Shown here: in pieces, positions 102 to 56,717 of the stretch
Layout of the letters: each line of letters begins with the position of its first letter
How positions within the stretch are numbered: the first letter of the stretch is position 1
The notes under the pieces: model-generated
Seen by the model: the letters and a program-made list of their open reading frames with translations, nothing else
Database searches by the model: none
Told to the model about the DNA's origin: nothing
Origin: an uncultured Verrucomicrobiota bacterium
GTDB lineage: Bacteria; Verrucomicrobiota; Kiritimatiellia; CAIVKH01
Direction of reading: 5' to 3'
NCBI GenBank assembly: GCA_964388845.1
Contig: CAYMCD010000004.1
Location: forward strand, 452-64,451
DNA: 64,000 nucleotides
Program-made: the position numbers and the translations under genes

Positions 102-150
102 TTACAGACGTTGGAACTCATGACGCGGTGTTATTACAGACGTTGGAAGT
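102..150 (+). repeat. Two direct copies of a conserved AT-rich ~20-bp element (core TTACAGACGTTGGAA at 102-116 and 135-149, 33-bp register) overlapping the 5' end of the giant gene
   Basis: Read directly: tttttACAGACGTTGGAAct (98-119) and atTACAGACGTTGGAAgttc (133-153). The same extended 18-20-mers recur three times at 24504-24566. The element is about 40% GC in a ~68% GC background. Copy 2 lies inside the predicted signal-peptide codons (YYRRWKF) if ATG-120 is the start. Confidence 0.75.
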
Positions 151-15100: not shown

Positions 15101-16910
15101 GGCCATCTGGATCAGCACGAATTCGCTTACCATGAGCTGGGAGGAGGCGCTGGACGACTTCTCCACGGTCGCCGAATACCGGGTCGTGGCGCCGGCCCAG
15201 TCCGCGGCGCAGCCCGCGACGACCAACGACGGGACGGGGTTGTCCGCCTCGGTGCGGACGAACTCCTTCAATATCACGGGGCAGCAGGGCGTGTTGACGG
15301 GGTATCTCTTCGCCGTGGACAACGACGCGGACCGGGGCCACGACCAGGCCATCGGGAATTTGCAGAAACTCGTGGTCCGCGTGGACACCAATCCGCCGCC
15401 GGTTCCCACCGCGCTGCGCGCGACGGATGCCGCGGCCGGGTATCTCTTCGGCAGCATTGACGAATCGTCCGAGATCCTCGTCCAGTGGACTCCGCCGGGG
15501 ACGAACGCGTCGCAGTCGGCCGGGTGGCGGCAGTCGGACAGCGAGGCGCTGTCGCCGTGGGAGACCTACATCATCACGTATTATGAGGTGGTGGACACCA
15601 ACGGCACGCCGGCCGCGAACGCGGTCACGCAGGTCCTCACGCGGGCGACCGCAGGCTGGTCGAACGCATTGTCCAGCTACGCATTCACCAACCTGTTGCT
15701 CTCCAACCTGACGTTCGATTCCTACTACAAGATCACCGTCCAGGGCCGGGACGAGGCCGGGAATATCGGCCTGTCCACCAGTGTCGTGGGCAACACGGAT
15801 CGCTTTGTGGTCACACAGGGGCTCGCCCGGGCGAACATGGGCCTTTCCGTCCGGTGGACCGGCCCCACGAACGAGACGACCTATCGCGATTACGATGTCA
15901 TTTTCGTGGACAGTTCGGTCGGCTTCCACGCCTCGCTGACGAACAGCTGGGACTGGCTGACCTACACCAACCGGCCGCGGCTGGAGGACTACGGGGGAAC
16001 CAACCGCGTCGCGCCGGGTTGGCTGACGGGCACAACGTACCGGATGTACCGCGTGGCGCGGGAGGATCGCTGGCGGACCAACCAATCGCCGCGCCTGGCC
16101 AGCGTCGAAATCTACGCGGCCAAGGCCCTGCGCCTGCATCCGGGCGAGAACTGGTATTCACTGTTCTCCTGGCCCGACCCCGCGACGACCAATGAGCAGG
16201 AAAGCACCGTCGCCTACGTGTTCGGCACCAACACGCTGCACGCGAGCAACACCTATGCGCAGTCCACGCGCATTTCCTGGTTCGGCGCCACCACCGGCGC
16301 GACCAATATCGGGACGGTGGCCACCTCGATCGTCTGGCTGTCTTCGTCGGCGGGCTGGCAATACGCGCTCGGGGGATCCGGCGCGGCGAATGAGAAGCGC
16401 GTGCCGCTGGGGCAGGGGTTCATGATCGAGGTGCCGACCAATGCCGCGGCGACCAACCTGGTGCTGATCGGGCGGCTGCCGACGCAGTCGCTGTCGCGCG
16501 TGATCTCAGCGCCGGTTTCCACCAACATCCCGGAGTTCCATGTGCTGAGCCACCAGATGCCGGAACGCATCACGGTGTCGAACTTCGTCAGCCAGTTCAG
16601 CGGCTTCGGCGCCGGGCCGTTCGCGAACTACGCGGACGAGATTCGCATACTCGACAACAGCCAGACCAATGGCGTAGCGATGGGTTCGCTGCGCTCGCCG
16701 CGGATGCGCATCTGGTACAGTTCGATCGCCGCGCATTCGAACGCCCCGTGGCGGCGCGCGACAACAGGATCGCCGGCAAATAATCCGTCGGCGATGGGCG
16801 AGATTATCGAGCCGGACGACGCCATCATCATCGTCCGCCGCAAGTCGGGAACCGTGACGTTCGTCAACACGCCCACGTATCCGCCGCCGACCCGGAACAT
16901 CACGCCATGA
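120..16910 (+). CDS. Giant secreted multidomain protein (about 5600 aa): PATR repeats, MAM-like modules, Calx-beta, EEP domain, LTD, FN3/Ig-like modules
   Basis: ORF 78-16910 is uninterrupted. ATG-120 gives a textbook signal peptide (MTRCYYRRWKF-CAAAAALWSYLWV-TDGRA); GTG-189 is an alternative start. Domains recognised by eye: FN3-like (~700-1020); PATR repeats GTGTLALTG/GTLxAxxxFT (~1750-2800); MAM-like modules (FEG..W..SYDGGTTW..FFVDDIELS; ~3300-3820 and ~8520-8990); Calx-beta-like ending ATVVIQDDDAITI (~3840-4150); EEP domain (~4150-4935; VVAIQEW, SRWPI, HVVSTHF, VVAGDLN, YDFVLPN); LTD (~5388-5690; LFFSEYVEGSSNNKFLEIYNGTG...DDAIAL); and three ~225-aa tandem modules ending YFDEIRVAT(S/N)W. 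No PEP-CTERM, LPXTG or TM anchor at the C-terminus. Confidence 0.9.
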   Translation: MTRCYYRRWKFCAAAAALWSYLWVTDGRADVYLGKDGGLEGIATVDDSTTFSTGQSNKWTKDNATITISQETVNIRSGANALRVLNASTTGRRIRSPFNSFGSKTTGITIQYYRMITNVSNSASNQEGVVRSSTESLQGTYDRPASANSWDKQTYSPASATFTSIVGVILSRGPTASGGNIYIDDMCIYDGSVDTTAPNAPGSVVVENATTTSLDIRWGAASGGVDSGGYLVVRYTASPAASDDPNANGIYASNNTFTVTLTGTVRYQGTGTNFTDTGLASSQAYYYKVYTYDKAYNYSSESSGNGTTLSSCTPVGAVTFVQQTNYYTKYSSGGDIFNVDAARMGMWANSGSEQAVAWRAFRTDGSGGGELRELQPGDRFRVTINGPNPSGLVGVSINDGAATGSWDNRTNNTRGFIQVQGGGANDYFVTHGGGTPAWSGVRPNSTDQTLVFDILSSAEFTANIEGQTAKYDLSMLNGPGDGDRVDGFSLFLNNDAGDIHWKQTTMVTNLGYVELGADNGTRSIAGKITDSTDPACTNTAAPNLLRKTGTGTVTLQNTANTYTMGTRVEAGTLAVFNDGSLGAAPGGAVATNLNIWSSGTLRATNSFTISANRGIALGDVSGPGIEVDSGKTLTYAGALGGNAEWNKKGTGTLALTGTSSTNNGKVVIQGGTLQLAGDGSLGAVPGAASEKINIWSTGTLEANATFTLNANRRIELGAVAGPKISVAGGYTLTYGGQISGSANWSKESAGTLALTGAVGSASGTLVLNAGTVAFDGTNTSQAVGVTASGFLYGNGSIGALTITGQVSAGGASNTVGNLRTTSLNLQDNGRLQVNFSAMTGTAGTDWDVITVGGGSGTYTVNAADGSDFVLALKGNPTFNNALGYTNIIADAGTASGFVSNKFTVSTDEFTPGLGGGAFVVDAAGGDLRLIFIPSVVAEPDMGVLGTNGAAISNGDVAPSAADGTDFGQVYVLGARAVTNVFAITNAGTANLTLSSVSTSSAMGAAADFAVLSWPSTISPGAKSNLVIAFDPSDVGVRTALVSIANNDTNNNPYTFVLAGEGTGAYSAITLQGFEGSAADTWTYTRAAGAGDIYVDGDTNAGGAYALTFRGSASSNSDPYLEFDTIDLSGYGSVTLRVAFAVAGADNGDDLELDLSYDGGTTWNGPGSTTLVYGASNTNLGFTGTGASTVPANPWTVALPSTAQQVRVRIRFDESANDNTFDRFFVDDIELSGMGAAPTVALGDVLYSTSETDATVTVPVSISASFSATVQVALAGTATGGGTDYSANTTNVIFSAGGATTSNLVFTLNNDGAAEGPEEIGVTLVAARGARVGGPAAATVVIQDDDAITIMSANLTSGTNLVDGTYWYTETSQRIFKRLRPDVVAIQEWKFTNAGARAFVDAVFGTNYYYYIEPESDPNPIPNGVISRWPITASNEWTDTYVGARDHAQVTIDIPGNRDLHVVSTHFKAGPGDAATRESQARELTNYIAGAAFPTNDYVVVAGDLNLTNRTETTFVVVTSVVTDAHQPADRDGDLNTNLGRSAPYDFVLPNHVLDADHLAVAVAGVSFANGVVFDSRQYKDHLTPILVEDSYEANRTHMAVVKVFTISTSAAPPTVTTTIASATNQTTATAGGNVTDDGGASVTNRGVVWALDPATPTVPGAQTTNGTGTGSYSSTLTNLTPGATYNYRAFAQNSAGTGYGATNSLTTPCFSGIVTGLVASATNETDFTAAWSNFAGATGYSLDVSTNATFGGAGSPDLFFSEYVEGSSNNKFLEIYNGTGASVDLSNYKVLHFNNGASTPTYSLTLSGTLSAGAVYVIENSSESLGVTADLSTSSSVMNFNGDDAIALTNTLAGGYADVIGQIGTDPGTEWGTGSASTADNTIRRMSSVTGGDTNGANSFDPATEWDGYATDTVSGLGSHTGGASPSYVPGYSNRTVSVSGASVTGLTGGATYYFRVRATNDYCATDNSATQSVTTISYVPDVAALGTNLAAIVISNTAPAIANGTDFGSIGVNLSNRMHTFTITNSGTAALGVGTVTTTGTHAADFIVVSQPAASIAAGGSSTFQVQFDPGAAGQRDATLTFTNTVSGKTPYPFAARGTGVLAGIGYGPAATSVTVMVGTTPSAAAFGVTNVGRGRLDYATSTNAAWLSVSPVSANLNEGGAQAHTISFNVTGLSAGTSNATVTITDAGASNSPQTVAVTLILTNIPNPTAVSAWAHGRELIRLGWTRPTGLDVMIVYRETNAPSVPAQGQGYSIGDTYGGDGSRVIYKGSAAQLEHVVLPGRTNHYALHAINNDHYSPGVATNIATTAYPASEIVEPFAYTNTGTLATGGHGGGGNGWTNSWQYDTGNFNISSGNFANISVYPTNAANRVRINSADIDGTSKAARRHFAAYTTGKVYAAYMLNYAYNGANKFAGLSFMDGTNEMMYYGEDYNSDQKLAVGSSSTATNIYAGVGNDYLIVGLYDFTADTGYGLVYKIGTDSVPASEPSVWHGSHSNNAIARIDGIRIAAGAGGGSGTPGDTYFDEIRVATSWELLLANYAQPEIAALGTNLAVLTTANTPDYANGSDFGATAVTGGQVDRTLFITNSDAGALNVSGLSTSGAQAADFIVVSWPAKVSPGAVSNLVLRFDPFASGVRTGAITIASDDADEGSYVFHVRGTGQVPPTVATTIASATNQTSATAGGNVTDDGYAPVTNRGVVWSASAGPTVPGAQTTNGTGTGSYSSTLTNLTPGAPYYYRAFAQNSAGTGYGTEYTLTTLCFSGLVTGHYVSATNDVNFTVVWSNFADASGYALDVSSNAGFAVNSGGSVYTNTWEGASKGAYASGTVVIAGITWWMDDALIGTSASDRKNGSNAARVQNSGVIGMQTSTNMGLSSITLLHGVYGSDGNSDGRVEYSTDGWATWSTAGTFTATSTSLTAFEATNLNVSGSVAVRIVKTSGGGDRYNLDDILLHPYSQAPSFVPGYSNRAVSGTSASVTGLVSGATYYYRIRATNAYCATENSTTGSVTTVVLAASIDILGNGALIVDGDATPSPTDHTDFGGVGLVNSNLVRTFTITNAGPGALSVYGVSTSGAAAADFIVIAPPGTPVSADATTTFQVRFNPTALGTRTATLAVSNNVTGKTLYDFVVQGTGVAASLVVAPSSLSVTSVLGSAPAGLGFGVTNSGRGDLVYGVATNVNWLSVSPNAATNAETEGRQHTLTFTAPGLHAGVSNATITVTDTNAVGSPQVVAVEWTLTAIPPVLSAGVTNDGNELVRIGWTKDSGYDVMIVHNRTNPPSAPANGTSYSVGGAVGSDGSRVIYSGGGAELQHVVAPGSDNYYAFYSVNNNHYSTPLSTNTTTGAYAAGEIVEPFAYTSGVTMISRQGGNGWGANFWTGDTNAFSVSNLSFAAQTNYPTPRANKLAVTPQDGGSNTIRRQFTNTYASGRLYVGYIVNFQYSGADKYAGLSLMSNTTERLFVGEVSTADLRLGLDGSSSNRVLNNGAGNDYIVVMRYDWSSGLAAASAYKVGTDAVPDSEPTAWDMMLSKASNAVGRINGLRLVAGTTGSGTPGTTYFDEIRVATNWSELIQMLPSRVIYDGFASSSGALSGGGGGTGWSDTWAIGGDPFADYTATSFGIEKSSYYQPTGNKIVLYGDVNGRWITASRTFLEPFTNGAVYFSWMMNYEFNGTDKYAGLKLLDGGSEKAFVGKVSGADKALGIDSSSSNQTSTNDIENASGNDYVVVAKYDFATRVLSATTYRTITNAVAEEPNGYWLVTTTQGVGHITSLTGVRLSIGAGASVQVGDVYYDEVRVGTNWFEVTRKDGEAQAPAMANGPTPRLLYVGTNYNPALNPQGILNDITVTDADLINTADPLDIAILWSNSYGVFMTNASPAIKNISSRLGRVTPNYDPVVLTGSQFQSTGADASFTNFAGNNGSTVVTTYQHRAFNITNSTYDDAYYITVSAENNNLGGGTFAAPNAGDAIPYWRALTVNTALQFYVQDDDISYPELLEFTIDGVGGSGVSNLSAGGIAVIGVNGTATGDLERFSFVVLAPFPAGTVIEFTDCGWDPTDLSGTGDWHRVTEFHTNKWVATGNIDVGRVIELTLNDINNGGDQVTIFQYYGATTASNDSENVNFVYAVNLGPRWYDPPGDPIPDDNQSSALYRGLTNGTTAVSVPLDYGVANARYIGPMTGTASYLLLQISDSNNWESLATGYHDITNYSFEVTGAGAFDWNTPELSDAQVLAGGFMVTNILRDLDSGVLASNTSFGHAPYFMLFNTNDQVVVSNLFVVSFTNGTRTVITNANNTFSGQYDRITIGMGEALVAWSDADGDRSLDTLMTTSRVPVLIFDDDPDEPVAGAMTLLNGSNTVTEQAGPVQLLAAWNFNASNTTATSGSGTWSDNLLTAPTYGNAGTTINAVSGDTAGADITITAGSGLQNNGRYIQFLLNMSGSEGLVMTYSARRSGTGFTTNLVAYSTDGVSFTPFATNTPTQDSHALRSNDFGAVTALDDQGAVYIRITLDGATATAGNNRFDNFQFNALRRVFTLTDGALALVASTNPLSFSFSVYDETSGVARGTSSDGTNMNVSIPGMATNNTTNYAASASSAGTLAPSSTSLWQFTSFTYAQIGDLYGGGTNLIPVTANISDLDNDRLDDRLQLTNRSYGTFFVTDDDTNTPVVANVNLSGASAAPFVVATNGVAPTNLIRNFIARRTGSGTDTLTTVTDQELADATNIQFQFVFGVRDAHSGVSRGVSGTTNEVMSFSLGTNITGNFTDYSAALSTPQATTNLLLTNYWTFGNFDSAAINALMASTGNPVHITMPDLDDDRPSDRATDYSRLVGYVRVVDDDIRGPIINSADIAGAYGTNVTMYSSFETNQNWPASSLGSGTPWTNDATTGRWIADGATFGALDPKISGTRRIGLLTNSLAEPRWIQLPPIADPGTLVLFAGRFSGNDVTLRVERADGASWISVGSRVVTNLNPEFELFSWDINVTGVTTLRVVHAGTGPQVYMDDISVYPQAIWISTNSLTMSWEEALDDFSTVAEYRVVAPAQSAAQPATTNDGTGLSASVRTNSFNITGQQGVLTGYLFAVDNDADRGHDQAIGNLQKLVVRVDTNPPPVPTALRATDAAAGYLFGSIDESSEILVQWTPPGTNASQSAGWRQSDSEALSPWETYIITYYEVVDTNGTPAANAVTQVLTRATAGWSNALSSYAFTNLLLSNLTFDSYYKITVQGRDEAGNIGLSTSVVGNTDRFVVTQGLARANMGLSVRWTGPTNETTYRDYDVIFVDSSVGFHASLTNSWDWLTYTNRPRLEDYGGTNRVAPGWLTGTTYRMYRVAREDRWRTNQSPRLASVEIYAAKALRLHPGENWYSLFSWPDPATTNEQESTVAYVFGTNTLHASNTYAQSTRISWFGATTGATNIGTVATSIVWLSSSAGWQYALGGSGAANEKRVPLGQGFMIEVPTNAAATNLVLIGRLPTQSLSRVISAPVSTNIPEFHVLSHQMPERITVSNFVSQFSGFGAGPFANYADEIRILDNSQTNGVAMGSLRSPRMRIWYSSIAAHSNAPWRRATTGSPANNPSAMGEIIEPDDAIIIVRRKSGTVTFVNTPTYPPPTRNITP
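4930..10815 (+). repeat. Intragenic segmental duplication: unit A ~4930-7740 is repeated as unit B ~8100-10815, offset ~3.1-3.2 kb
   Basis: Protein level: PPTVTTTIASATNQTTATAGGNVTDDG...AFAQNSAGTGYG (4930-5350) versus PPTVATTIASATNQTSATAGGNVTDDG...AFAQNSAGTGYG (8100-8520); PSYVPGYSNRTVSVSGASVTGL... (5880-) versus PSFVPGYSNRAVSGTSASVTGL... (8995-); EIVEPFAYTNTG... (7060-7735) versus EIVEPFAYTSGV... (10156-10820). A stretch of more than 60 nt is identical at 5102-5170 and 8258-8326 (cgcagacgacgaacgggacgggcacgggcagctactcctcgacgctgacgaacctgacgcccggcgcg). Unit A carries the LTD (5388-5690); unit B has a MAM-like insert at that position (8520-8990). Confidence 0.85.
10156..11510 (+). repeat. Tandem pair of ~675-nt modules (10156-10820 and 10836-11510), homologous to 7060-7735; each encodes a ~225-aa domain starting NGW and ending YFDE(I/V)RV(A/G)T(N/S)W
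   Basis: Three aligned protein segments read from the ORF: GGHGGGGNGWTNSWQYDTGNFNISSGNF...; QGGNGWGANFWTGDTNAFSVSNLSF...; GGGGTGWSDTWAIGGDPFADYTATSFGI.... All share the internal motif NG(A/T)(N/D)K(F/Y)AGL(S/K)(F/L)(M/L)D. Confidence 0.8.
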
Positions 16911-24584: not shown

Positions 24585-26960
24585 CTATTCCCCAACGGTA
24601 TGAGCGGTCCACCGGGCCTGACTGGGGTCGGCGGCGCGCACCCAGAGCCGGCGCGCGGCCGGCGTGTCCGCGGGATCCCAGACGTCGCCCTCCGCCAGCG
24701 AAAGGGCCAGCCGGTTGACGGTCATCGGCGACCGGCCGCTCATCAGCCCGATCGGCCCCCCCAGCTGCATGCGGTCGGTGCGGGCGACGCATTCGCCGTC
24801 CACCCATGCGGAAAGGCCGTCCTGTTCGCGCCGGACGGCGATCTCGCGGGGTTGCGCGGTCGGTTGCGGCGCGCCGCGCGTGGCGATGCGGGTGAGGCGG
24901 CCGTCCTCGACCCGGCCGAGGATCCAACCGCTTTCCTTCCAGTGCCAGCCGAAGCAGTCGTAGGTGCGCGCGCTCCGCATGTTGAAGACCAATCCGCCGA
25001 GCTGCTCGCCCGTGTCCTCGCGCGTGGTTTCAATCGTCAGCGCCGCGGCAAATTCCGCGCGCGCGTCGGCGGAGGCGCCGTCGAGGGGGATTGCGGCGTC
25101 GCCGTCCGGGTGGGAGAGGGTCCATCCGTCCGCGCCGAGCCGGATGCCGGGATCGGGCCGCGGCCGGGCGAGCAGGTCCTCGAACCATGTGATCGCCGGA
25201 GGGTCCCCATCCGGATCGTCCGCCGTCGCGCGCAGGCGCGCGGGATGTTCGCTGTCCGGCGCCACTCGGGGGGCGGATGGCGGCGCATTGTGCCGGTGGA
25301 TCGTGATCGGGACCGGCGTGCTGCGGACCGGCGCCCCGTCGGGAAACAGGGCGGAGAGGCGGAGCGGGACCGGCCCCGGCCCGATGCGGGCGGCGGCGAC
25401 GGCGATGCGCTGTTCCTGCGTCGCGGCGGGTCCGTTCCAGACGGGCCGCTCGTGCGCGGTGAGGACGAGGCCGGTGGCGCCGGCGGTCGCCTGGACGATC
25501 AACTCGATGGTCTGGTGCAGGGCGGCCGGCGCATGGGGCTCCGCGGCGGGGCGAAGCATCGCGGCGCGGCCCAGATTGTCCACCGCGAAGCCCGCGCGCG
25601 CGTGGCCCTGGCGGCGGATGGGGCCGGGCGAGTAGAGGACGGCGTGGAGTTCGTGGTAGCCGTCGGCCAGCTCCCGGGTGTCGAACCGGAGCCCCGTGGC
25701 GCGGCCGCCCGCCGGGAGCGAGCGCCCGTCGAGCAACATCAGGTAGGTGGCGCCGGGGACCGGAACGATGGGCGACGCGACGAAGGCGGCCTCGCCGCGC
25801 AGCGGTATTTTCGCGTCGTCCATGCTGACGAGCGCCATCGGCGCGGGGCGATCCCAGGGTTTGCACAGCGGGTCGCCGACGAGCAGCAGTTGCAGCGGGC
25901 TGCGGACGGCCTGCAGATAGCTTTCGAGCAAGGTGCATCCGCTGGCGTAGTGGAAAAAGAGGCGCGCGTGGGGAAACTTGGTCCAGATCGCGAGCGGCTC
26001 GGTGACGGTTCCCGCGCTGCCGGCGGCCCCCAGGGCGAGCCAATAGCCCAGTTTGGTCTGCTCGTGCGCGTAAAAGTAGCCCGCCAGGCTGGTGAGGTTG
26101 TCGGCGACCGACCCCGGCTGCAGGCGGCCCCACGGTTTGTCCGTGAAGGCCGTGCCGAGCATCAGGCCTGAGAGCGGGGCCGCGGCGGCCGGCGGATTCG
26201 AGGAGACCGTTGCGGCGAGGCCGAGGCCCTTCAGCTCGCGCGCGGCCGGCCCAAACTGCCAGCTCCGGCATCGGACGCGTACATCGTCGCTGAGGTGGAA
26301 GTGGACCGGGTCGCTCGGCGCGGCGCCGTCCGCCGCGGCCGCTCGCCGGAGTCCGGCAATGACCGTATCCGCCGACAATCCCCGTGCGCCGGTGTGGCCC
26401 AGCAGCATGGCGGGAAGCGGCATATCCTCCTTCAGCGCCATGGCGAATTCCTGGAGGGAGCCCGGCGGCGCGCCTTCGTTTCCGGGCCGGTCCGGCCCGC
26501 GGAAGAACGGCGACCGGAAGACGCCCTTGTCCACCTGTTCGCGCGGCGGGAAGACTCCTCTCGTGAACGTGGCGCCGGTCAGGGACATGGGCGAGGGTGT
26601 GGTGACGCGGAAGGGAAAATCCGCCGAATAGATCCATGCGAGGATGTGGTCGCCGATCCCGCGCGCCTCGATTTCGCGGCGGACGGGTTCGACGATCCAT
26701 CGGTTGAAATCCTCCAGGGACGCCTCCGCGCGGATGTCCCATGCGGTGTCGGGCAGGTCGAGGTAGATGATGTTGGCGGAGGGGATGCGGCGCAGATGGG
26801 CGTAGTGATGGGCGATTTCGAGGGAGTCGCGCGAGCGCGCGTTGACGATGAGTGCGATTTCGTGCGGGCCCTGGGCGGGCGCGGGCGACACGGCGAGCGC
26901 GCAATGGATGAGAACACAGCGAATGACGAATGACGAATGGCGCATGGCGGAGCGAGTCAT
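24585..26960 (-). CDS. Secreted hypothetical protein (791 aa) with a C-terminal concanavalin/LamG-like region; last gene of the exosortase-EpsI-WbaP operon
   Basis: Signal peptide MTRSAMRHSSFVIRCVLIHCALAVSPAPAQG. The start lies 3 nt downstream of the wbaP-like stop. C-terminal motifs (..GWHWKESGWILGRVEDG..AWVDGECVARTD..) resemble a lectin-type jelly-roll. There is no PEP-CTERM tail. Confidence 0.7.
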   Translation of the reverse strand: MTRSAMRHSSFVIRCVLIHCALAVSPAPAQGPHEIALIVNARSRDSLEIAHHYAHLRRIPSANIIYLDLPDTAWDIRAEASLEDFNRWIVEPVRREIEARGIGDHILAWIYSADFPFRVTTPSPMSLTGATFTRGVFPPREQVDKGVFRSPFFRGPDRPGNEGAPPGSLQEFAMALKEDMPLPAMLLGHTGARGLSADTVIAGLRRAAAADGAAPSDPVHFHLSDDVRVRCRSWQFGPAARELKGLGLAATVSSNPPAAAAPLSGLMLGTAFTDKPWGRLQPGSVADNLTSLAGYFYAHEQTKLGYWLALGAAGSAGTVTEPLAIWTKFPHARLFFHYASGCTLLESYLQAVRSPLQLLLVGDPLCKPWDRPAPMALVSMDDAKIPLRGEAAFVASPIVPVPGATYLMLLDGRSLPAGGRATGLRFDTRELADGYHELHAVLYSPGPIRRQGHARAGFAVDNLGRAAMLRPAAEPHAPAALHQTIELIVQATAGATGLVLTAHERPVWNGPAATQEQRIAVAAARIGPGPVPLRLSALFPDGAPVRSTPVPITIHRHNAPPSAPRVAPDSEHPARLRATADDPDGDPPAITWFEDLLARPRPDPGIRLGADGWTLSHPDGDAAIPLDGASADARAEFAAALTIETTREDTGEQLGGLVFNMRSARTYDCFGWHWKESGWILGRVEDGRLTRIATRGAPQPTAQPREIAVRREQDGLSAWVDGECVARTDRMQLGGPIGLMSGRSPMTVNRLALSLAEGDVWDPADTPAARRLWVRAADPSQARWTAHTVGE

Positions 26961-26963
26961 TTC

Positions 26964-28373
26964 TCAGAAGGCGCCGTGGCCGGATGTCACCGCGCGGACG
27001 GTGCGGACCAGGATGACGATGTCCAGCCAGATGGACCAGTTGCGGACGTAATAGGTGTCCCATCGCGGCATGGCGGCGTGTCCGGCCTCGCTGCGGCCGG
27101 AAACCTGCCAGAGGCCGGTGATGCCGGGCCGGACGCGGTCGCGGAGCTGGCGGACGCGCTCCGGCAATTCCCTGTAGTGGTAGTGGGGCAGTGGCCGCGG
27201 TCCCACGAGCGACATATCGCCGCGGAAGACATTCACGAACTGGGGCAATTCGTCTAGCGAGGTGGCCCGCAGGAAGCGTCCGATCCTGGTGATGCGCGGA
27301 TCGTCGCGGAGTTTATAGTGCGTTTCCCACTCCGTGCGGAGCATCGCGTCCTCGGCGAGCCGCCGCTGCAGCAGGCGCTCGGCGTCCGGGTGCATCGTGC
27401 GGAATTTCAAGGCGTGGAACACGCGGCCCCGGTGGCCCATGCGTTCCTGTTTGAAAATGGGATGCGCGTGGTCCTCCAGCCAAACGAGCAGGCCCATCAA
27501 GAGGCAAAGGGGAATCCACAGGGGGGCGAGCCCGATGGCGACCGACAAATCCATGCCGCGTTTGACGAAGCGCGCCAGCGGATCCAGCAGGTTTCCGGGG
27601 ATTTCGATCCCGAGCAGTCCCATCAGGTCGCGCGGTTTGACCCAGAGCGTGGGCGATTCGGCGATGTCCGGGATCACGACCACGCGCCGGTAGTGAGCCA
27701 GGGGTCCGTCGAGCAGATCGCTGACGCCCTGGGGTGAAATGCCGGCCGTGGCGAGGAGGGCGACCGGGGCGGCGGCGGTCCGGTCCTGCGTGGTCCCCAG
27801 GACCGGGAGTCCGGCGGTTTCCGGAGCGGAGGCGTCCTGTTCGTCCAGGAAGACCCCGTGCGGCAGATATCCGAATCCCTTTTCCTCGCGCAACGCGTTG
27901 ACGACTCGGACCGCCGCGTGCTGTCGTCCGTAGACGACCGCCGGCACGCCCCATCGGCCCAGGCTCAACAGGATGCGTTTGATCTCGAGTCGGATGGCGG
28001 GGACCAGCGCGATGCTGAGGAGGAAGCCGAACGTCAGCGTGAAGCGGCTGGTGGCTTCGGCCTGTTTGCCCCAGAACAGCATCGCCGTGGTGCCGGCGAA
28101 AACCGCGGCGAGCAGCAGGATGGTGCGGCGCAGCTCCTCCACCGGACCGAGTCCCCAGCCCGGCAGCAGGCGCGCGACGTAGGCGCCGACGAGCCACGCC
28201 CCGAGCAGGTACCACATCCAGCTGGCCAGCATCGGCTCGCCTTTCCACGCGAGGCGGACGAAGCCGCCGAGCATCAGCGCAAACAAGAGGGCGGCGGCCT
28301 CCGCAACACCCAGCGCAACGGCGTTGCCGATGGCCCGTTTGGCGAAGGGATACGTATCGTCGTTTGTGTTCAA
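26964..28373 (-). CDS. Undecaprenyl-phosphate hexose-1-phosphate transferase (bacterial sugar transferase family, WbaP/EpsB-like priming enzyme)
   Basis: The C-terminal catalytic domain is present: ..FRTMHPDAE..ATSLDELPQFVNVFRGDMSLVGPRPL..GITGLWQVSGRS... It is preceded by TM helices. Confidence 0.9.
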   Translation of the reverse strand: MNTNDDTYPFAKRAIGNAVALGVAEAAALLFALMLGGFVRLAWKGEPMLASWMWYLLGAWLVGAYVARLLPGWGLGPVEELRRTILLLAAVFAGTTAMLFWGKQAEATSRFTLTFGFLLSIALVPAIRLEIKRILLSLGRWGVPAVVYGRQHAAVRVVNALREEKGFGYLPHGVFLDEQDASAPETAGLPVLGTTQDRTAAAPVALLATAGISPQGVSDLLDGPLAHYRRVVVIPDIAESPTLWVKPRDLMGLLGIEIPGNLLDPLARFVKRGMDLSVAIGLAPLWIPLCLLMGLLVWLEDHAHPIFKQERMGHRGRVFHALKFRTMHPDAERLLQRRLAEDAMLRTEWETHYKLRDDPRITRIGRFLRATSLDELPQFVNVFRGDMSLVGPRPLPHYHYRELPERVRQLRDRVRPGITGLWQVSGRSEAGHAAMPRWDTYYVRNWSIWLDIVILVRTVRAVTSGHGAF

Positions 28374-28385: not shown

Positions 28386-29150
28386 CTAGCTGCGATCTGC
28401 ATCCTGCACTGCGATCAGAGGATACAGTTCCCTCACGAAGGCGTCGAGCCTGTCCAGCGGCGCGTCGCCGGGCTGGTCGTAGAGACCGACGACCGAAATG
28501 TAGGCCCACGGATACGCCCGGTTGTGGAGGATCCGATCCCAGGCCATCCAGAACATGCGCGCGGGATGCGAGGGGGTTTCACGTCCGCGCCCCGCGAACC
28601 AATAGGCGAAGAACATGCGGCCTGCGACGGCGCGGCCATCGGGGAGGCGGCGGGTTTGCTGGACGTCCAGCAGGGTGACGTCCAGCGGGGGAAACCCGGG
28701 CCGCTCGATCCGGCGCGTGCGGCTGGCGACAATCTCCGATCCCTCCGCCAGCAGGCAGACCTCGGGCCGGTGGATGCTCGATCGGTGTCGCCCGCTGAAC
28801 ACGATGGCTGCCTGCAGGGGCGTGCGATAGCCGTCGCGGCTGTACTGGCGTTTGTCCGCCACGGTGTCGCCCGGCAGCACCAATCGTTCAAAGGTGGTCA
28901 AGGCCTCCAGCGGCGCCCCGCAGTCGGGACACGCCTCGCCCGATCCGGGATCGGCGGCGAGAACGAGCCGTCCGTGTTCGGGATTCTGGCAGTAGAGCAC
29001 CCGCTTGCCCGTCCACGGCCCGATCCGATCCGGCAGGGTCCGGGAGACCGACGGGCGGTCAATGAAGGTGATGCGCGTGATGTCCGGCATCACGGACGCG
29101 AGCCCCAGCATCAACGCCGCGGAGAGGAAGAGGGCATGCGCCGGTTTCAT
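28386..29150 (-). CDS. EpsI-family exosortase-associated protein (copy 1)
   Basis: Signal peptide MKPAHALFLSAALMLGLASVMP; the EpsI signature ..SIHRPEVCL..; and a conserved C-terminal ..FFAYWFAGRGRETPSHPARMFWMAWDRILHNRAYPWAYISV... It is a paralogue of 49116-49868. Its start forms an ATGA overlap with the upstream exosortase stop (29147-29150). Confidence 0.8.
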   Translation of the reverse strand: MKPAHALFLSAALMLGLASVMPDITRITFIDRPSVSRTLPDRIGPWTGKRVLYCQNPEHGRLVLAADPGSGEACPDCGAPLEALTTFERLVLPGDTVADKRQYSRDGYRTPLQAAIVFSGRHRSSIHRPEVCLLAEGSEIVASRTRRIERPGFPPLDVTLLDVQQTRRLPDGRAVAGRMFFAYWFAGRGRETPSHPARMFWMAWDRILHNRAYPWAYISVVGLYDQPGDAPLDRLDAFVRELYPLIAVQDADRS

Positions 29151-30127
29151 GGCAGCCCCTCCCGGTCGCGCGACGGGTTCGCTTCGCCCGTCGGTTCCAT
29201 GAGCGAGCGCAGGCGCGCGCGAAAATCCACGGCATTCAGGCGGGCCAGCCGGACGGCCATCCACAGGAAGAGAAGGAATCCCGGGAGCAACACCAGGGCG
29301 GGAACTTGTTCGTCAATGCGCGCGGCGGAACCGGGCGAGGCGAATTCCGACCACAGGCAAAGCGCGACGCCGCGCGCGACCGTGGCGAGCAGGAACGCGA
29401 GCGGCGACAGGGCCACGACCAGCAGCCGGCGCGCCGGCTTGAGCCGCGAGAGTTCGGCCACGAACACGGCGAGCAGCATGCACGCGAAAAGGGCGTACAC
29501 GCTGCTGGTCGGGTCGGCGAGGTCAACCGCCCAGGCGCGGGTTTCGCTCTCCATCAGCACGGAGCCGACGGCCTGCACGCCGAGTCCCACGCCGGACGCA
29601 AGGACCGCCGCCGCGCGCGCGGCGGCGATGCGCATCGGGTTCAGCAATTGGTCAAAGAAGTTCAGGGGCATGGAAAGCAGCAGCACCAGCGTCGGATAGG
29701 CGAGTGCGCGCAGGAGCGCTCCTCCCCAGGCGAACGCCGGGATCGCCCACCACAACAGGAACAGGGCGAGCAGGCTCAACCGGGTTTGCTGCGCCTTCGC
29801 GCCGAACACGTGGAGGGCGAGTGCGGCGAGGACGATCGCGAGGGCGGGCCAGCAGACGCGCGACGGCGCGTGCGCCCAGGCCCCGCGCCTGCGCCACGCG
29901 AGCCAGGCTGCCAGGGGGACGGCCAGGAAGTTCAGGGAGTAGCTCGTCTGGTGCCAGTCCACCAGCCAGCGCCCGTACAGCCAGCGGAACGCGGAGGGGT
30001 TCTGCTTGTGCGCCAGATAGCCGATATCCGTGACGCCGTGGAACGCAAACAGGAACCACCACGCCGCCAGCGCAGACGCGGCGGCCAGCGCGGTGGGCCA
30101 TCGGCCGGATGGGAGAAGACCTCGCAT
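29147..30127 (-). CDS. Exosortase-family membrane protein (copy 1) with non-canonical residues at the catalytic positions (DPTSS and TVAR in place of DPCSG and NIAR)
   Basis: 326-aa polytopic protein sharing LGAKAQQTRLSL(L/F)..L(L/I)(W/I)WA(I/V)P and overall colinearity with the canonical exosortase at 48181-49146. Aligning the two by eye, ..FDVADPCSGIRSL../..AIVGNIARIVVV.. in copy 2 corresponds to ..AVDLADPTSSVYAL../..LLATVARGVAL.. in copy 1. Confidence 0.75.
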   Translation of the reverse strand: MRGLLPSGRWPTALAAASALAAWWFLFAFHGVTDIGYLAHKQNPSAFRWLYGRWLVDWHQTSYSLNFLAVPLAAWLAWRRRGAWAHAPSRVCWPALAIVLAALALHVFGAKAQQTRLSLLALFLLWWAIPAFAWGGALLRALAYPTLVLLLSMPLNFFDQLLNPMRIAAARAAAVLASGVGLGVQAVGSVLMESETRAWAVDLADPTSSVYALFACMLLAVFVAELSRLKPARRLLVVALSPLAFLLATVARGVALCLWSEFASPGSAARIDEQVPALVLLPGFLLFLWMAVRLARLNAVDFRARLRSLMEPTGEANPSRDREGLP

Positions 30128-30146: not shown

Positions 30147-31157
30147 CTATTTCACCAGACGCGCCCAGGAGGGCGGCAGGTTGCGGGGGACTTCGATCCC
30201 CTCGAAGGGTTTGCCCGAGCGGGCGCCGGTCTCTTTGACCCAGGCGGCCATTCGCGCGAGTCCCTCGTCCAGGGGGACGTTCCGGCAGAGGCCACCGAAA
30301 TGCCGCCGGACCTTCTCGTGTGACGAAAAAGCGTGGACGACCTCATTCCGGGCCGGCAGGTGCCGGACCTGTGGTTTCACGCCCATGGCTTTCGCCACGG
30401 ATTCGGCGAGCGTCAGGACGGAATAGGGCGTGTCCGCGCCGACGTTGAAGACCTCGTTGAGCGCCTCCGGTCGTTCGATCGCTTGCGCGATGACGGGCGC
30501 CACGTCATCTATGTAGCTGAACGCGCGCGTCTGGTTCCCGTCGCCAAAGACGGTCATGGGCAATCCCTGGAGGATCTGGTTCATGAAGATGCCGATGACG
30601 TTCCGGTAGGGATCGCCGATATTCTGCGATTCCCCGTAGACATTGTGCGGGCGGAAGACGATGTAGGGCAGGCCGAACATCTCGTGGGCCTCCTTGAGAT
30701 CCAGCTCCACCGCGAATTTTGCGATGCCGTAGGGATCCTCGGGCATCGGCGTGGCGTCCTCCGTCATCGGGGCCTGGTTTCGTCCGTAGACCGCGATGGA
30801 GGAGGTGAAGACGAAGCACTTGACCGTGCCGGTGTTGACGGACGCGTTGATGAGATTGACGCTGCCGATCAGGTTGTTCGAATAGTTGAACCGCTTGATG
30901 AAATGGCTCAGCCCCTCGGCCGCATAGGCGGCGAGATGAAACACGTACTCAAACCGGTGTTCGGCGAACAGGCGATCCACGAGCGCGTGGTCGAGGATGG
31001 AGCCCTGGACAAAGGAGGCGCCCCGGGGGACATTTTCGGTGAAACCGCCCGAGAGATCGTCCATCGCCACGACGCGATGGCCCCGTTCGAGCAGGCGCCG
31101 GGCGACATGCGATCCGATGAAGCCGGCCGCGCCGGTGACGAGGGTGGAGGGTTTCAT
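30147..31157 (-). CDS. NAD-dependent epimerase/dehydratase (UDP-sugar 4-epimerase-like SDR)
   Basis: Starts MKPSTLVTGAAGFIGSHVARRLLERGHRVVAMDDLSGG (Rossmann GxxGxxG). Has the catalytic YGIAK. The ORF-track N-terminal extension to 31847 is Arg/Pro-rich junk overlapping the next gene. Confidence 0.85.
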   Translation of the reverse strand: MKPSTLVTGAAGFIGSHVARRLLERGHRVVAMDDLSGGFTENVPRGASFVQGSILDHALVDRLFAEHRFEYVFHLAAYAAEGLSHFIKRFNYSNNLIGSVNLINASVNTGTVKCFVFTSSIAVYGRNQAPMTEDATPMPEDPYGIAKFAVELDLKEAHEMFGLPYIVFRPHNVYGESQNIGDPYRNVIGIFMNQILQGLPMTVFGDGNQTRAFSYIDDVAPVIAQAIERPEALNEVFNVGADTPYSVLTLAESVAKAMGVKPQVRHLPARNEVVHAFSSHEKVRRHFGGLCRNVPLDEGLARMAAWVKETGARSGKPFEGIEVPRNLPPSWARLVK

Positions 31158-41848: not shown

Positions 41849-42616
41849 TCAGCCGGCCTTTGCTGCGAGCCAGAGATCGGGATTGACGCGCCCGTTCCGC
41901 ACGCGATAACCGCGGGCTGCGAGCAGTTTTTTCAATACGTCGGGCGATTTGTCGCGCCGCGCGTGGATTTCCATCAGGATGTTTGTCGCGGCGGCCCACA
42001 GGCCATTCGGCAGGGTCTCCAGAATTTCGTACTCATCGCCCTCGCAATCTATTTTCAACAGGTCGAGCGCCGGGCGGCCCTCTTCCTCCCACACGGACGC
42101 GATATTTCGCAGCGGCAATTGTGTGGGAATCCCGGACGCAGCGTGCCGGCTGGTCTGGCCGTAGGAATCGAACGGCACAAAGGCGGCGACGGATTGGTCG
42201 CGGTCGGCGAGGCCGTACGGGCGGGTTTCCCATGGCTGGTCGTTCCACTCCGCCTGATTCTTCGCGAGCACGGCGAATGTCTCCGCGCAGGGCTCGAACG
42301 AGGTGATGTGCGTTCCGGGATGGCGGCGCAGCAGCCAGATCGCGAAGCACCCGATGTTGCCGCCGATATCCCAGACCCGCCGCGGCGGCGAGGCGGGGAA
42401 CAACTCGCCATAACTTTCCGCGACGAACAGTTCGCCCATCGCGACGGTGTCAAATTTGGGGCGAACCCAGAGCGCGCGTCCGCCGCGCATGCGCAGGCGC
42501 TTGGCGTCGGGGCGTTCTCGTCCGGTGTAGCGCATCAGGGCCGCGGTTCTCCAATCTATGAACACGCGCCGATACTTCATCAGCGAGCCGAGTTTCCTTA
42601 GCGGGGAAGCGTTCAT
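41849..42616 (-). CDS. FkbM-family methyltransferase
   Basis: ..RVWDIGGNIGCFAIWLLRRHPGTHITSFEPCAETFAVLAKN..LLKIDCEGDEYEILE.. matches the FkbM signature (DIGANxG ... KIDxEGxE). ATGA overlap with the upstream gene stop (42613-42616). Confidence 0.8.
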   Translation of the reverse strand: MNASPLRKLGSLMKYRRVFIDWRTAALMRYTGRERPDAKRLRMRGGRALWVRPKFDTVAMGELFVAESYGELFPASPPRRVWDIGGNIGCFAIWLLRRHPGTHITSFEPCAETFAVLAKNQAEWNDQPWETRPYGLADRDQSVAAFVPFDSYGQTSRHAASGIPTQLPLRNIASVWEEEGRPALDLLKIDCEGDEYEILETLPNGLWAAATNILMEIHARRDKSPDVLKKLLAARGYRVRNGRVNPDLWLAAKAG

Positions 42617-44877
42617 GGGGTTGGCGGCGGTATGCTGAGCCCGAGACGGTTGCGCAGCAAGTCGAACCAAAGGGGGCCGGTGCTGTCCGGCGAATAGCTC
42701 GCCGCGCGCTGCCGGCCGTTGCGGCCCATCTCGGCGCGCAGTTCCGGGTGCTTCAACAAGTGGACCAGCCGCGCCGCCAGCTCGGTTGGATTGTCCGGTG
42801 GGACGAGATGGCCATCCTGTCCGTCGCGTATGACATCCATCAAGCCATCCACGCGCGATGCGACTATGGGGACGCCGGCCGCGCATCCTTCGACGGCCAC
42901 ATAGCCGAAACTTTCGTACATGCTGGTGATGACCAGCACGTCGGCCGCCGCCATATAGGCCCGGCTGTCCGTCTGGTAGCCGAGAAAACGACAGGTTGAC
43001 TCGATCCCCAACCGGTTCGACAGCGATTGAAGCGATGTTCGTTCCGGGCCGTCGCCGACAATCCAAAGTCGCGCCGCGGGATGTTGCGCGATTACGGAGG
43101 GCCAGGCGGCAAGCAACTGGTCAATGCATTTCTGGTCGCTGAGCCGGGCCACGGCGACCACGTGTTGGTGTTGGTCCGACCATCCATGGCGCAAGCGCAC
43201 CGCGGCGACCTCGTCCGGCGTGGGACTCGATTCCGGCGGAATGGTCGGCGGGATGCAGACGATTTTTTCAGCGGGCGCCAGGTGGCGGAGAACGTACTGG
43301 TGGCGTGAACTGTCGGTGAACGTCACCACGGCGTCCGCGAGGCGGCAGGGCAGCCATTCGCACAAACGGTTGCGGATGATGCGAAACCAATCCCAGTCCG
43401 TGTAAAATGCCGGCCATTGCGCGACGTACACGATGTGGCGCACACCCGCCAGACGACCCGCGAGGGCGCCGATGGGGCCGGCGGGCTGTCCGTGGACCAC
43501 GAGAACATCCGGACGCAACGCGCGGATGCGCCGCCAGAGCGCCGGACCGGCTCGGATCCATGCCCGGGGATGAATGGGCCGCATCTCCCGATAGGGGATG
43601 CCGTGCCGTTCGCAATACGTTGCGACAAGTCCGCGCGACCCGCCAATGGCGCTTTGTCGGCACCAGGGGACAAATTTACGAATCAGGCCGACAATGATCG
43701 GCGGCCCGCCACCGGGGCCGTCGTGGTGAACGAAATGGGTCATCAGCGGGCGGGTCTCGGGCAGGAGCGCGTTCAGCAGGACCGGCGCGATGCGCTCCGG
43801 TTGATAGGCCTCCGCCGTCTGGTGTCCGGCCTCGCCCATGCGGGCTCGTTCGGCGGGATCGTTGATCAGGCGCAGGAGGGCCTGCGCGAAGGCCTCCGTA
43901 TCGCCGGGCGGAAGGAGCAGGCCGTCGCGGCCGTTTGTAATGATGCTGCGCGGACCATCCACCTCGGTGGCGACGACGGGTTTGCGCGCGGCGAACGCTT
44001 CCAGCACCACATTTCCGAAGGTTTCGAAGAGGGCCGCATGGGCGAGGATGTCGCCGGCGGCGATGTATTCCGCGCCGGTGTACTGATCGTCGTTGATCCA
44101 CGTGACATGCGATTCGACGCCCAGCGCCCGGGCCAGCTCAACGAGCTGCGCCTTGAGATCGCCCTGGCCGACCATCCACAGATGGGCGTCGGGTCGCCGC
44201 TCGATCACGCGCTTCCAACCGGCCAGTAGCCAATCGCCTCGCTTCTGCCGCTCCATGCGGCCCACGCTGATGACGTTGCAAGCATGCCGGTCGAATTGAT
44301 GCGACTCCCGCAGGCGCCGCACGCGTTCGGGATCGGCCTGCGCGGACGCCGCGATCGCGTTGGGCACGACCCGCAGGCGCCCGGGCGGGGCCAGGCCGCG
44401 GATCAGGAACTGATAGCGGGTGCTTTCCGTGAGGCATATGACCCGGTGACTTAGCGCGCACGCCACGCGCTCCGCCGCGTGATTGCGCAGGCTGCGGACG
44501 AGGTCCCAGTTGGCGTAGAAAGCGGGCCACCGGGCAATGTAGACGCGCAGCGGAACGCGCGCCAACCACGCGGCCGCCGCGCCTACGGGCCCGGCCCACT
44601 GCCCGTGAAGCACAACCGTATCGGGCCGCGCCCGGCGCAAATGCCGCCAGCACTGCCACCAACCGCGCGGGAGCGCGCGTTGCCGGTCGAGCGCCACGCG
44701 GCGATGCGGAATCCCCGCGCGATCGCAATAGTCGGCTACGCGCCCGGCGCCGCCGTGCAGCACGGACTGATCGTAGTGCGCGGCCAGCGTCTCCAGTTGT
44801 GTGATGAGCGACTGGGGGCCCCCGCCGGGGCCGTCCAGATGGAGAATGTGGACCAGGGCGGGCCGCGATGCCGTCAT
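42613..44877 (-). CDS. Didomain glycosyltransferase: two tandem GT1 (GT4-type) modules in one 754-aa polypeptide
   Basis: Module 1 is MTASRPALVHILHLDGPGGGPQSLITQL...ETFGNVVLEAFAARKPVVATEVDGPRS... Module 2 is ..THFVHHDGPGGGPPIIVGLIRKF...ESFGYVAVEGCAAGVPIVASRVDGLMD... The modules are mutually homologous and there is no stop between them. ATGA overlap at 44874-44877. The ORF-track extension to 45969 was rejected. Confidence 0.8.
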   Translation of the reverse strand: MTASRPALVHILHLDGPGGGPQSLITQLETLAAHYDQSVLHGGAGRVADYCDRAGIPHRRVALDRQRALPRGWWQCWRHLRRARPDTVVLHGQWAGPVGAAAAWLARVPLRVYIARWPAFYANWDLVRSLRNHAAERVACALSHRVICLTESTRYQFLIRGLAPPGRLRVVPNAIAASAQADPERVRRLRESHQFDRHACNVISVGRMERQKRGDWLLAGWKRVIERRPDAHLWMVGQGDLKAQLVELARALGVESHVTWINDDQYTGAEYIAAGDILAHAALFETFGNVVLEAFAARKPVVATEVDGPRSIITNGRDGLLLPPGDTEAFAQALLRLINDPAERARMGEAGHQTAEAYQPERIAPVLLNALLPETRPLMTHFVHHDGPGGGPPIIVGLIRKFVPWCRQSAIGGSRGLVATYCERHGIPYREMRPIHPRAWIRAGPALWRRIRALRPDVLVVHGQPAGPIGALAGRLAGVRHIVYVAQWPAFYTDWDWFRIIRNRLCEWLPCRLADAVVTFTDSSRHQYVLRHLAPAEKIVCIPPTIPPESSPTPDEVAAVRLRHGWSDQHQHVVAVARLSDQKCIDQLLAAWPSVIAQHPAARLWIVGDGPERTSLQSLSNRLGIESTCRFLGYQTDSRAYMAAADVLVITSMYESFGYVAVEGCAAGVPIVASRVDGLMDVIRDGQDGHLVPPDNPTELAARLVHLLKHPELRAEMGRNGRQRAASYSPDSTGPLWFDLLRNRLGLSIPPPTP

Positions 44878-46061
44878 GCGGCGGCTCCCTTCGTGTGGAG
44901 GGCGAGCACAGTCAGGGCGCGCGCGCGAAACGCCGCCCCGCCGAATTGTTCGACGCGCCGGCGGCCCGCCGCGCCCATCAGCGCGCGGCGATCCGGCTGC
45001 GCGATCAGCGTGTCCAGCGCGTCGGCAAAGGCCTGGGTGTCTCCGGCGGGGGACTGGAGCCCTTCCACGCCGTGCGAAAAATTCATCCGCACGCCGTCCG
45101 CCTCCATGGCGACGAGCGGGCGGCCGGCGCCCATGGCCCAAAGCGACAGCCGGCTGTGCATTTCGTACAGGCTCGTCATGGCGACGATGTCCGCCGCGGC
45201 GGCGTAGTGCGCGAGCGGGCGCGTCGGCTGGAGAAGGGAGCAGCGCGAGAGGCCCAGGCGGCCCGCCCGCGCCCGGAGGGCCCGCTCCTCCGGGCCGATC
45301 CCCGCGATCGCGAGCCGGGCGGGGCAGCCGCGCTCCTCCACCAGCGCCCAGCCTTGCAGCAGCCAGTCGAGCCTCGCACGGGCGGCCAGATCGCCCGCGT
45401 ACACCACCAGCGTATCGCCCGGGCGGATACCGAGATCGCCGCGGATGGCGGCGCGCGCGGACTCGTCCGGCAACTCCTCTGCCGCGAAAGGTTTCGGCAA
45501 CAGGATGAACGTTTCCTCGGGCGCCCAGTCGCGCAGCAGGTACTGGTAGCGCGTGCCGTACGCGGGCACGATCACGTCGCGCGCGCCGGTCACAATCGCG
45601 TGTTGCCGCAGGAAGACGCGGGCGACATTCCACAGGGAGGTGTCCTGGTAGAGGTCGTCCGACAGGGCGACGTACGTCGTGTTGGAGAAGCCCGCCGCGC
45701 GCGCCGACGCCAGGCCGTGTCGCGCGGCCCGTGAGCCGATGAAGATCAACCAGTCGGGGCGCGCGTCGCGCAGGGCCCGGATCGCGCGACCGCGCGACGA
45801 CCGCGCGAAGGGCGCGCGGTCGTCGCATCGGACGCCGGCGAGGCGTTCGCGGTTTTCCGCGCGCTCGGCGGGCTCGATCCTGACGAGCGCGTCGGCGCGC
45901 GTCCCCCATGCGGCGCAGAGGTCCGCGGCATAGCGCGCGAATTCGCCCGAGGGATCGGATTCGACCCACAGTTCCACGCGCGGCGCAAGGGCGCGATGCG
46001 CGGCGTCAGACCGGGGCGGGATGGGCTGGGTGGAGTCGTGCACGTGCGTTATCCGGCCCAT
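44874..46061 (-). CDS. Glycosyltransferase family 1
   Basis: MGRITHVHDSTQPIPPRSDAAHRALAPRVELWVE.. and the GT1 core ..TSLYEMHSRLSLWAMGAGRPLVAMEADGVRM... ATG at 46061. The 250-aa ORF-track extension was rejected. Confidence 0.8.
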   Translation of the reverse strand: MGRITHVHDSTQPIPPRSDAAHRALAPRVELWVESDPSGEFARYAADLCAAWGTRADALVRIEPAERAENRERLAGVRCDDRAPFARSSRGRAIRALRDARPDWLIFIGSRAARHGLASARAAGFSNTTYVALSDDLYQDTSLWNVARVFLRQHAIVTGARDVIVPAYGTRYQYLLRDWAPEETFILLPKPFAAEELPDESARAAIRGDLGIRPGDTLVVYAGDLAARARLDWLLQGWALVEERGCPARLAIAGIGPEERALRARAGRLGLSRCSLLQPTRPLAHYAAAADIVAMTSLYEMHSRLSLWAMGAGRPLVAMEADGVRMNFSHGVEGLQSPAGDTQAFADALDTLIAQPDRRALMGAAGRRRVEQFGGAAFRARALTVLALHTKGAAA

Positions 46062-51575: not shown

Positions 51576-54056
<2,481 letters not shown>

Positions 54057-54185
54057 AGGGGGAGGGGAGTTGGGAGAAAGGAACTATACTACTGAGCAAT
54101 GATGAGTTGACCGATTCTCATGGCGGCTTGGTGTAAGGAATCGGGAAGGGGGAGCCGGTCCTCTATTCCAACTCCTGTCACCCCG

Positions 54186-56717
<2,532 letters not shown>

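Follow-up and report, generated by a model that had tools for sequence, protein, structure and literature searches.

The 64,000-nucleotide stretch analysed here (the window), from an uncultured Verrucomicrobiota bacterium of the class Kiritimatiellia, encodes two paralogous proteins of the exosortase family, one of which is devoid of the catalytic Cys. This protein, which we name XrtPsi, is 326 amino acids (aa) long and is encoded at 29147-30127 on the reverse strand by an open reading frame (ORF) with an ATG start, stop codon included. XrtPsi is a pseudoenzyme in the sense of an enzyme homologue that lacks the catalytic residues and yet keeps its reading frame open and, across species, evolves under purifying selection. 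From its sequence and setting we propose that it is probably a non-catalytic pseudo-exosortase that serves polysaccharide assembly as a membrane subunit, be it scaffold, receptor or regulator.

Both proteins belong to the family by profile matching. PF09721 (Exosortase_EpsH) matches XrtPsi at 73.9 bits (cutoff 25.7), and the NCBIfam signature TIGR04178 is barely passed (25.2 bits, cutoff 23). XrtPsi fails the cutoffs of TIGR02602 (8TM_EpsH; 48.4 versus 105.55 bits) and of the XrtA model TIGR03109 (60.1 versus 208), and it lies under the cutoff of every named exosortase type among the NCBIfam models. The gene has a coding-type pattern of GC content across codon positions, with a third-position GC (GC3) of 0.87 in surroundings of 66% GC. 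A profile scan of all window ORFs found just one other exosortase homologue, at 48181-49146 on the forward strand, which has intact CSG, NIAR and HDYSG motifs and scores 171.7 bits with TIGR02602 and 190.5 bits with PF09721; it is referred to below as the canonical copy. The two proteins share 34% identity over 247 residues (BLASTP, E 1e-34), and the initial annotation of this DNA, which had read them as paralogues, was thereby borne out. By homology XrtPsi is a member of the exosortase superfamily; being without the defining catalytic features, it should not be filed as an exosortase enzyme.

Six residues in three motifs, C-x-G, N-x-x-R and H-x-x-x-G, are invariant across the family, and a Cys/Arg/His triad has been proposed for exosortases (PMC1569441). 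For the archaeosortase ArtA, the only superfamily member with reported mutagenesis of predicted active-site residues, site-directed mutants confirmed the importance of these residues according to a review (PMC6098224). In XrtPsi five of the six invariant residues are lost, and Arg252 is the sole one retained. The alignments and the DNA place Thr207 (codon ACC, 29507-29509, reverse strand) on the catalytic Cys column, so that C-x-G has become T207-S-S, and show N-x-x-R replaced by T249-V-A-R252 (29372-29383, reverse strand), where the Asn has given way to Thr249 (codon ACG, 29381-29383) and the Arg is kept. In the hidden Markov model (HMM) alignment, E273 and A277 stand on the His and Gly columns of H-x-x-x-G (29297-29311, reverse strand), and both of those residues are therefore lost as well.

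The placement of T207, T249 and R252 agrees between the pairwise alignment, two MAFFT alignments and the HMM alignment with 118 Cys-bearing homologues. In the BLASTP alignment DLADPTSS of XrtPsi is paired with DVADPCSG of the canonical copy, and ATVAR with GNIAR. Independently of any alignment, XrtPsi has no His at all beyond residue 106. Among the closest homologues of the canonical copy, the Cys, the first Gly, the Asn, the Arg and the His are kept in 120 of 120 sequences, and all six residues in 118. A different Cys of XrtPsi on the catalytic column was also considered and is ruled out: the only three it contains (C92, C216 and C257) align elsewhere, and none is kept across all orthologues. 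The initial annotation was therefore right that the Cys and Asn columns are substituted and the Arg kept, and its Thr residues do occupy these columns in a profile alignment. The invariant set of Cys, Arg and Asn that it assumed is found within the published motifs, but the set comprises six residues and the proposed triad contains His in place of Asn; the loss of the His was missed.

About 18 relatives, recovered from independent assemblies (ENA, JGI, Logan and NCBI), are likewise without the Cys and make up a narrow family recognisable by a GVTD[IV]GY loop. A database search returned six orthologues at 47-68% identity, every one with Thr on the Cys column; orthologues sharing the substitution, for which the initial annotation had suggested a search, do therefore exist. 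Further members came from a profile search (P0278-P0284 and P0010) and from genome and metagenome scans (L001 and L011). Across the narrow family the Cys column is occupied by Thr in about 15 members, by Ser in P0008 and P0284, by Ala in P0278 (three member sequences on eight contigs, with the same gene cassette as in the window), by Arg in P0283 (568 aa) and P0011 (584 aa), and never by Cys. The His column is never His, and the Arg252 column is invariant. The Asn of N-x-x-R is lost in most members and retained in P0005, P0007, P0009, P0010 and P0279, so that of the two residues whose presence in orthologues was to count against a Cys-less class, the Cys is found in no narrow-family member and the Asn in some.

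Several relatives are longer than the window protein (568-592 aa), and the extension of P0283 is an EpsI domain (PF11984). Apart from the GVTD[IV]GY loop, the motifs specific to the Cys-less family are WRRR and a C-terminal GLP tail. The extreme C-terminus, R(E/D)GLP (29147-29200, reverse strand, in the window), is conserved in the family, ends in LP in most members and is missing from the canonical copy; it may be a docking motif.

The scan of GTDB representative genomes, for which the back-translated patterns were narrow, gave one locus (L001), and the scan of JGI metagenomes gave mostly canonical exosortases, since the QQTR pattern is shared, with L011 (Thr) and L052 (Ala) as the only Cys-less additions. 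The Cys-less family had 17 hits at E <= 1e-15, one of which (P0265) is a canonical exosortase. For the canonical copy, 1227 of the 8,000 scored candidates reached E <= 1e-10, many of them named from metagenome-assembled genomes (MAGs) of Kiritimatiellia or Verrucomicrobiota. Since the Cys-less family is rare and the canonical one widespread, XrtPsi is best seen as an accessory module that supplements a core exosortase system.

Loss of the Cys extends into a wider clade. A profile built from seven orthologues and run against 1.84 billion representative proteins gave 3058 hits, of which the best 150 were aligned with the orthologues and both window copies, 154 sequences being kept. The Cys is missing in 36 of these 154, a proportion drawn from a sample biased towards the query profile and not a family-wide frequency; the residue is mostly Ala, and also T, S, R, P, F, L, H, Y, D or K. 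The 36 sequences group together in a neighbour-joining tree with one Cys-bearing intruder, and 35 of them still do so when the three motif regions are removed. Bootstrap support was moderate, with at least 28 of the Cys-less sequences kept together in 10 of 15 replicates, a crude measure given so few replicates and some undefined distances. The Cys-less sequences are best taken to form a single clade or a small number of related ones. The named members are Kiritimatiellia MAG proteins annotated as 'exosortase/archaeosortase family protein'. When ten Cys-less representatives were compared with the NCBIfam models, nine failed every exosortase-type model, P0016 alone just reached the generic TIGR02602 (105.9 versus 105.55), and none had a dedicated or type-specific match.

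These substitutions bear directly on whether XrtPsi could still be an enzyme. Thr207 (Ser in some members), or alternatively Cys257, might act with Arg252 in a hydroxyl-type or relocated-Cys intramembrane protease or transpeptidase. Such an activity would fit with the Thr or Ser that most narrow-family members have on the Cys column, with the invariance of Arg252 there and with the purifying selection on the gene. About 10 of 15 orthologues have Cys257 (29357-29359, reverse strand), a clade-specific residue five positions past Arg252. Against this, Cys257 is replaced by Gly or Ala in P0002, P0004 and P0010, the His that would serve as general base is missing, and the Asn is lost in most members. 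Furthermore, Ala (P0278) and Arg (P0283 and P0011) occur on the Cys column, in the case of P0278 with the same cassette, and Ala predominates in the wider clade. Conservation no longer peaks near the nucleophile either: the Cys motif and the next helix form the most conserved segment of the canonical sequences (1.28 times the mean), whereas the corresponding stretch of the Cys-less family is merely average (0.99 times the mean), the most conserved parts there being H106, GAKAQQTR and PLNFxD. Mid-chain Thr nucleophiles are in any case rare. We therefore regard a retained activity as unlikely. With the His gone, Ala and Arg tolerated alongside the whole cassette, a wider clade that is mostly Ala and no conservation peak, a non-catalytic role is favoured over a nucleophile swap; the initial annotation had offered both, and it is the former that our results support.

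XrtPsi is the second gene of a tightly packed, co-directional cassette of five. The first encodes an NAD-dependent sugar epimerase/dehydratase (30147-31157, reverse strand; PF01370, 188.6 bits; start codon checked), and an epimerase lies upstream of XrtPsi in all orthologous loci. XrtPsi is followed by EpsI-1 (DUF3485; 28386-29150, reverse strand; PF11984, 50.4 bits), the start of which overlaps the XrtPsi stop codon (ATGA) and the orthologous gene call of which is 248 aa. Next comes a WbaP-like polyprenyl-phosphate glycosylphosphotransferase, the priming enzyme (26964-28373, reverse strand; PF02397, 200 bits; TIGR03025, 336.8 bits, cutoff 295.55), and last a 791-aa protein with a hydrophobic N-terminus, labelled lectin-like in the initial annotation (24585-26960, reverse strand; TIGR03790, 82.3 bits, cutoff 67). 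The TIGR03790 match covers the N-terminal half of this protein of about 750-800 aa, and the C-terminal half has no family match; the window profile scan gave no Pfam match for it, and our search found no literature on TIGR03790. The locus as a whole has the setting of exopolysaccharide synthesis, with the WbaP-like priming transferase, a Wzx-like flippase, transferases of glycosyltransferase families 4 (GT4) and 9 (GT9), and epimerases.

The five-gene order recurs in five other loci (L002, L004, L008, L009 and L010), in which the upstream glycosyltransferases vary, and it holds down to 38% XrtPsi identity (P0010). In these loci the last gene encodes a protein of 779-808 aa with no Pfam match; homology to the window protein was checked for L002, where the two are 71% identical. 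L005 matches the cassette up to the point where the contig ends within its EpsI gene. In the distant Ala-type locus L052, on a 625-kb contig, the exosortase homologue is followed by EpsI and then by a 744-aa protein (7676-9910) that is 39% identical to the window 791-aa protein, and the priming transferase lies four genes upstream. The intact, coupled operon with EpsI and the priming transferase that the initial annotation described is thus a conserved arrangement.

The canonical copy also has its own EpsI, EpsI-2 (49116-49868, forward strand; PF11984, 55.5 bits), whose GTG start was set by analogy with the L006 gene call together with codon reading; the last 31 nucleotides of the canonical exosortase gene belong to both genes. 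EpsI-1 and EpsI-2 are 44% identical, and with an EpsI gene behind each exosortase copy, exosortase and EpsI seem to have been duplicated together. A Cys-rich, zinc-ribbon-like insertion is present in both EpsI paralogues ('...YCQNPEHG...ACPDCGAPL' in EpsI-1 and '...FCQAPACQ...LCPKCDGPL' in EpsI-2), and the EpsI domain fused to P0283 has a Cys-rich insertion too. Such an insertion is unexpected in a protein thought to be periplasmic.

The canonical pair lies about 19-20 kb from XrtPsi in the window and is divergently organised. It adjoins a UDP-glucuronate-decarboxylase-like (UXS) gene, an FHA gene and gyrA/gyrB (51576-56684, reverse strand), and the adjacency of the gyrase genes to this exosortase, EpsI, UXS and FHA block is kept in two other contigs (L006 and L007). 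Both exosortase copies were seen directly on one contig in the window and in ERZ27258551 k141_512147, where the canonical pair is again about 20 kb off. Two further MAG contigs (242,586 and 667,893 bp) are indicated to bear both copies as well.

This coexistence raises the possibility that XrtPsi, while non-catalytic, mainly modulates the canonical exosortase, much as an iRhom would, by pairing with it in a heteromer, serving as a decoy or gating its substrates, and is not a partner of the priming transferase in polysaccharide initiation. A canonical exosortase and EpsI are present in the same locus, and the H106, GAKAQQTR and PLNFxD elements common to both copies might give them the same binding surface. 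The genes whose linkage to XrtPsi is closest and best conserved are, however, those for EpsI-1, the priming transferase and the TIGR03790 protein, with the canonical exosortase some 20 kb away and divergent. We consider a role mainly in modulating the canonical copy improbable, to about the same degree as a retained activity; synteny favours the priming transferase over the canonical exosortase as the likely main partner.

Selection was estimated by comparing the window with contig ERZ27258551 k141_512147, which holds orthologues of both copies. The ratio of nonsynonymous to synonymous substitution rates (dN/dS) is 0.24 for XrtPsi against its closest orthologue and 0.054 for the canonical copy, with similar dS (0.92 and 0.85), and a second, independent pair of XrtPsi orthologues gave 0.21. 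Elsewhere at the locus dN/dS is 0.17 for EpsI-1, 0.08 for EpsI-2, 0.11 for the priming transferase, 0.19 for the 791-aa protein and 0.20-0.23 for other membrane proteins; with dS near saturation (0.8-1.0) and a genome GC3 of about 85%, all of these values are rough and best taken as relative ranks within the locus. XrtPsi is constrained like its locus neighbours, and 4-5 times less than its catalytic paralogue. The statement in the initial annotation that the rest of the protein is well conserved thus holds only in part, given that XrtPsi evolves 4-5 times faster than the canonical copy. The AlphaFold2 model of XrtPsi is confident, with a predicted local distance difference test (pLDDT) score of 86.7 and a predicted template modelling (pTM) score of 0.82, and its helices, together with a three-strand element that precedes the Cys-motif helix, follow the same order as in the canonical model. 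A sequence search of the PDB for XrtPsi found no solved structure, and Foldseek against the PDB returned only noise (best E 0.54).

The faster evolution of XrtPsi and its scores under the exosortase subfamily cutoffs might be taken as signs of a decaying duplicate without function. The reading frame is nevertheless intact in relatives from independent assemblies, P0282 alone being short at the C-terminus, and dN/dS is 0.2-0.25 and not about 1. In addition, 89 columns are invariant among seven orthologues of 47-68% identity, synteny and translational coupling are conserved, and the fold prediction is confident. Decay is therefore very unlikely, in line with the initial annotation, which had argued against it. 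The chance that the Thr codons stem from faulty sequencing, which the initial annotation had asked to have excluded, or from faulty assembly of this contig is negligible, since a Cys codon is two base changes from ACC at Thr207, an Asn codon two from ACG at Thr249, and orthologues in ENA, JGI, Logan and NCBI assemblies are Cys-less in the same way.

Some points do weigh against the proposal that XrtPsi is a non-catalytic subunit of the polysaccharide machinery. The term non-catalytic draws on sequence and on an analogy with the ArtA mutagenesis, and the hydroxyl residues on the Cys column, the invariant Arg252 and the recurrent Cys257, which speak for a retained activity, count against it too. 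Direct checks of co-occurrence with the canonical copy cover just two contigs, and a regular-expression scan of ORF tails found no PEP-CTERM substrate in the 64-kb window, so that a link to protein sorting would be hypothetical here.

Taking these points into account, we propose the following for XrtPsi as a pseudo-exosortase. It derives from a duplicated exosortase and keeps the predicted multi-helix membrane fold, but no longer has the nucleophilic Cys, the His or, in most members, the Asn; the duplication would have included its EpsI partner. Without Cys and His it would not be expected to perform a cysteine-protease or transpeptidase step. It would be made from the packed operon together with EpsI-1, the priming phosphoglycosyl transferase and the predicted secreted TIGR03790 protein, possibly forming a complex with EpsI-1 and the transferase, and would work alongside the intact exosortase-EpsI pair encoded at the far end of the locus.

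Several known systems offer comparisons. With exosortases (EpsH/XrtA; PF09721, TIGR02602 and TIGR04178) XrtPsi shares the family, the predicted fold, an adjacent or fused EpsI and an exopolysaccharide locus with a priming sugar transferase; with the canonical copy in particular it shares H106, GAKAQQTR, PLNFxD and the invariant Arg. It differs from exosortases in having no Cys in C-x-G, no His or Gly in H-x-x-x-G and usually no Asn in N-x-x-R, and also in falling below the subfamily cutoff, in its 4-5 times faster evolution, in its clade-specific motifs and in being an accessory second copy and not the only exosortase. ArtA of Haloferax volcanii is a distant homologue in the same superfamily but, unlike XrtPsi, is catalytically competent with conserved residues and has neither an EpsI partner nor an exopolysaccharide-locus context. 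Sortase A, the LPXTG transpeptidase, is the functional model for exosortases, having a Cys/His/Arg triad and acting on a C-terminal sorting signal, and is not homologous to them. We know of no dead sortase paralogue comparably tied to a glycosyltransferase operon, although no search was aimed at this. The closest analogy may be with iRhoms and Derlins, catalytically dead rhomboid-family pseudoproteases for which non-catalytic functions have been demonstrated experimentally. As with these, an intramembrane protease fold has been kept under selection after loss of the catalytic residues, presumably for the binding of clients or partners without cleavage; unlike these, XrtPsi has an unrelated fold, belongs to another domain of life and has a function deduced from sequence.

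Our searches found no paper on Cys-less, pseudoenzyme or catalytically inactive exosortases, although a passing mention elsewhere is possible, and no dedicated NCBIfam model for them, which accords with the suspicion in the initial annotation that the class is undescribed. Dead paralogues are common across enzyme families; the exosortase paralogue described here is conserved, clade-forming and bound to a particular operon.

The window contains other features outside the two exosortase modules. A single ORF of about 5610 aa (78-16910, forward strand) carries Lamin-tail, PATR, HYDIN/VesB Ig-like, fn3, BACON_2, ASH and endonuclease/exonuclease/phosphatase domains within its first 3800 aa or so; its last 1810 aa have no Pfam match, and it has no PEP-CTERM-like tail. 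The same endonuclease/exonuclease/phosphatase domain type occurs in an 1851-aa protein (56940-62495, forward strand), along with four Calx-beta repeats and a DUF11 domain. A high-GC stretch at 42613-46811 (reverse strand) contains long overlapping ORFs with ambiguous gene starts, one of which (42613-45969, reverse strand) has two GT4 modules and matches a 754-aa double-GT4 gene in L006.

To our knowledge, exosortases are widespread while their biochemistry is almost unstudied. One speculative arrangement is a two-part sorting machine with the Cys-less clade as its non-catalytic half, in which XrtPsi and its EpsI would dock the priming transferase or hold the lipid-linked glycan and present it as acceptor to the catalytic exosortase and EpsI, so that PEP-CTERM proteins would be transferred onto the nascent polysaccharide. 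We consider this a long shot, less likely than either a retained activity or a main role on the canonical copy; if true, it would supply the acceptor that has long been sought for the proposed exosortase transpeptidation. There is also a caveat for annotation. XrtPsi-type proteins pass the signature model and are named 'exosortase/archaeosortase family protein', so that a census of exosortases based on annotation alone would put the number of active sorting systems in Kiritimatiellia-type genomes too high. As a conserved protein without the catalytic Cys and His that is nevertheless still encoded alongside an EpsI of its own, a priming transferase and a TIGR03790 protein, XrtPsi would represent a natural separation-of-function variant, and it points to the H106, QQTR and PLNFxD region, the contact with EpsI and the transferase as candidate surfaces and partners of the exosortase family that are independent of catalysis.

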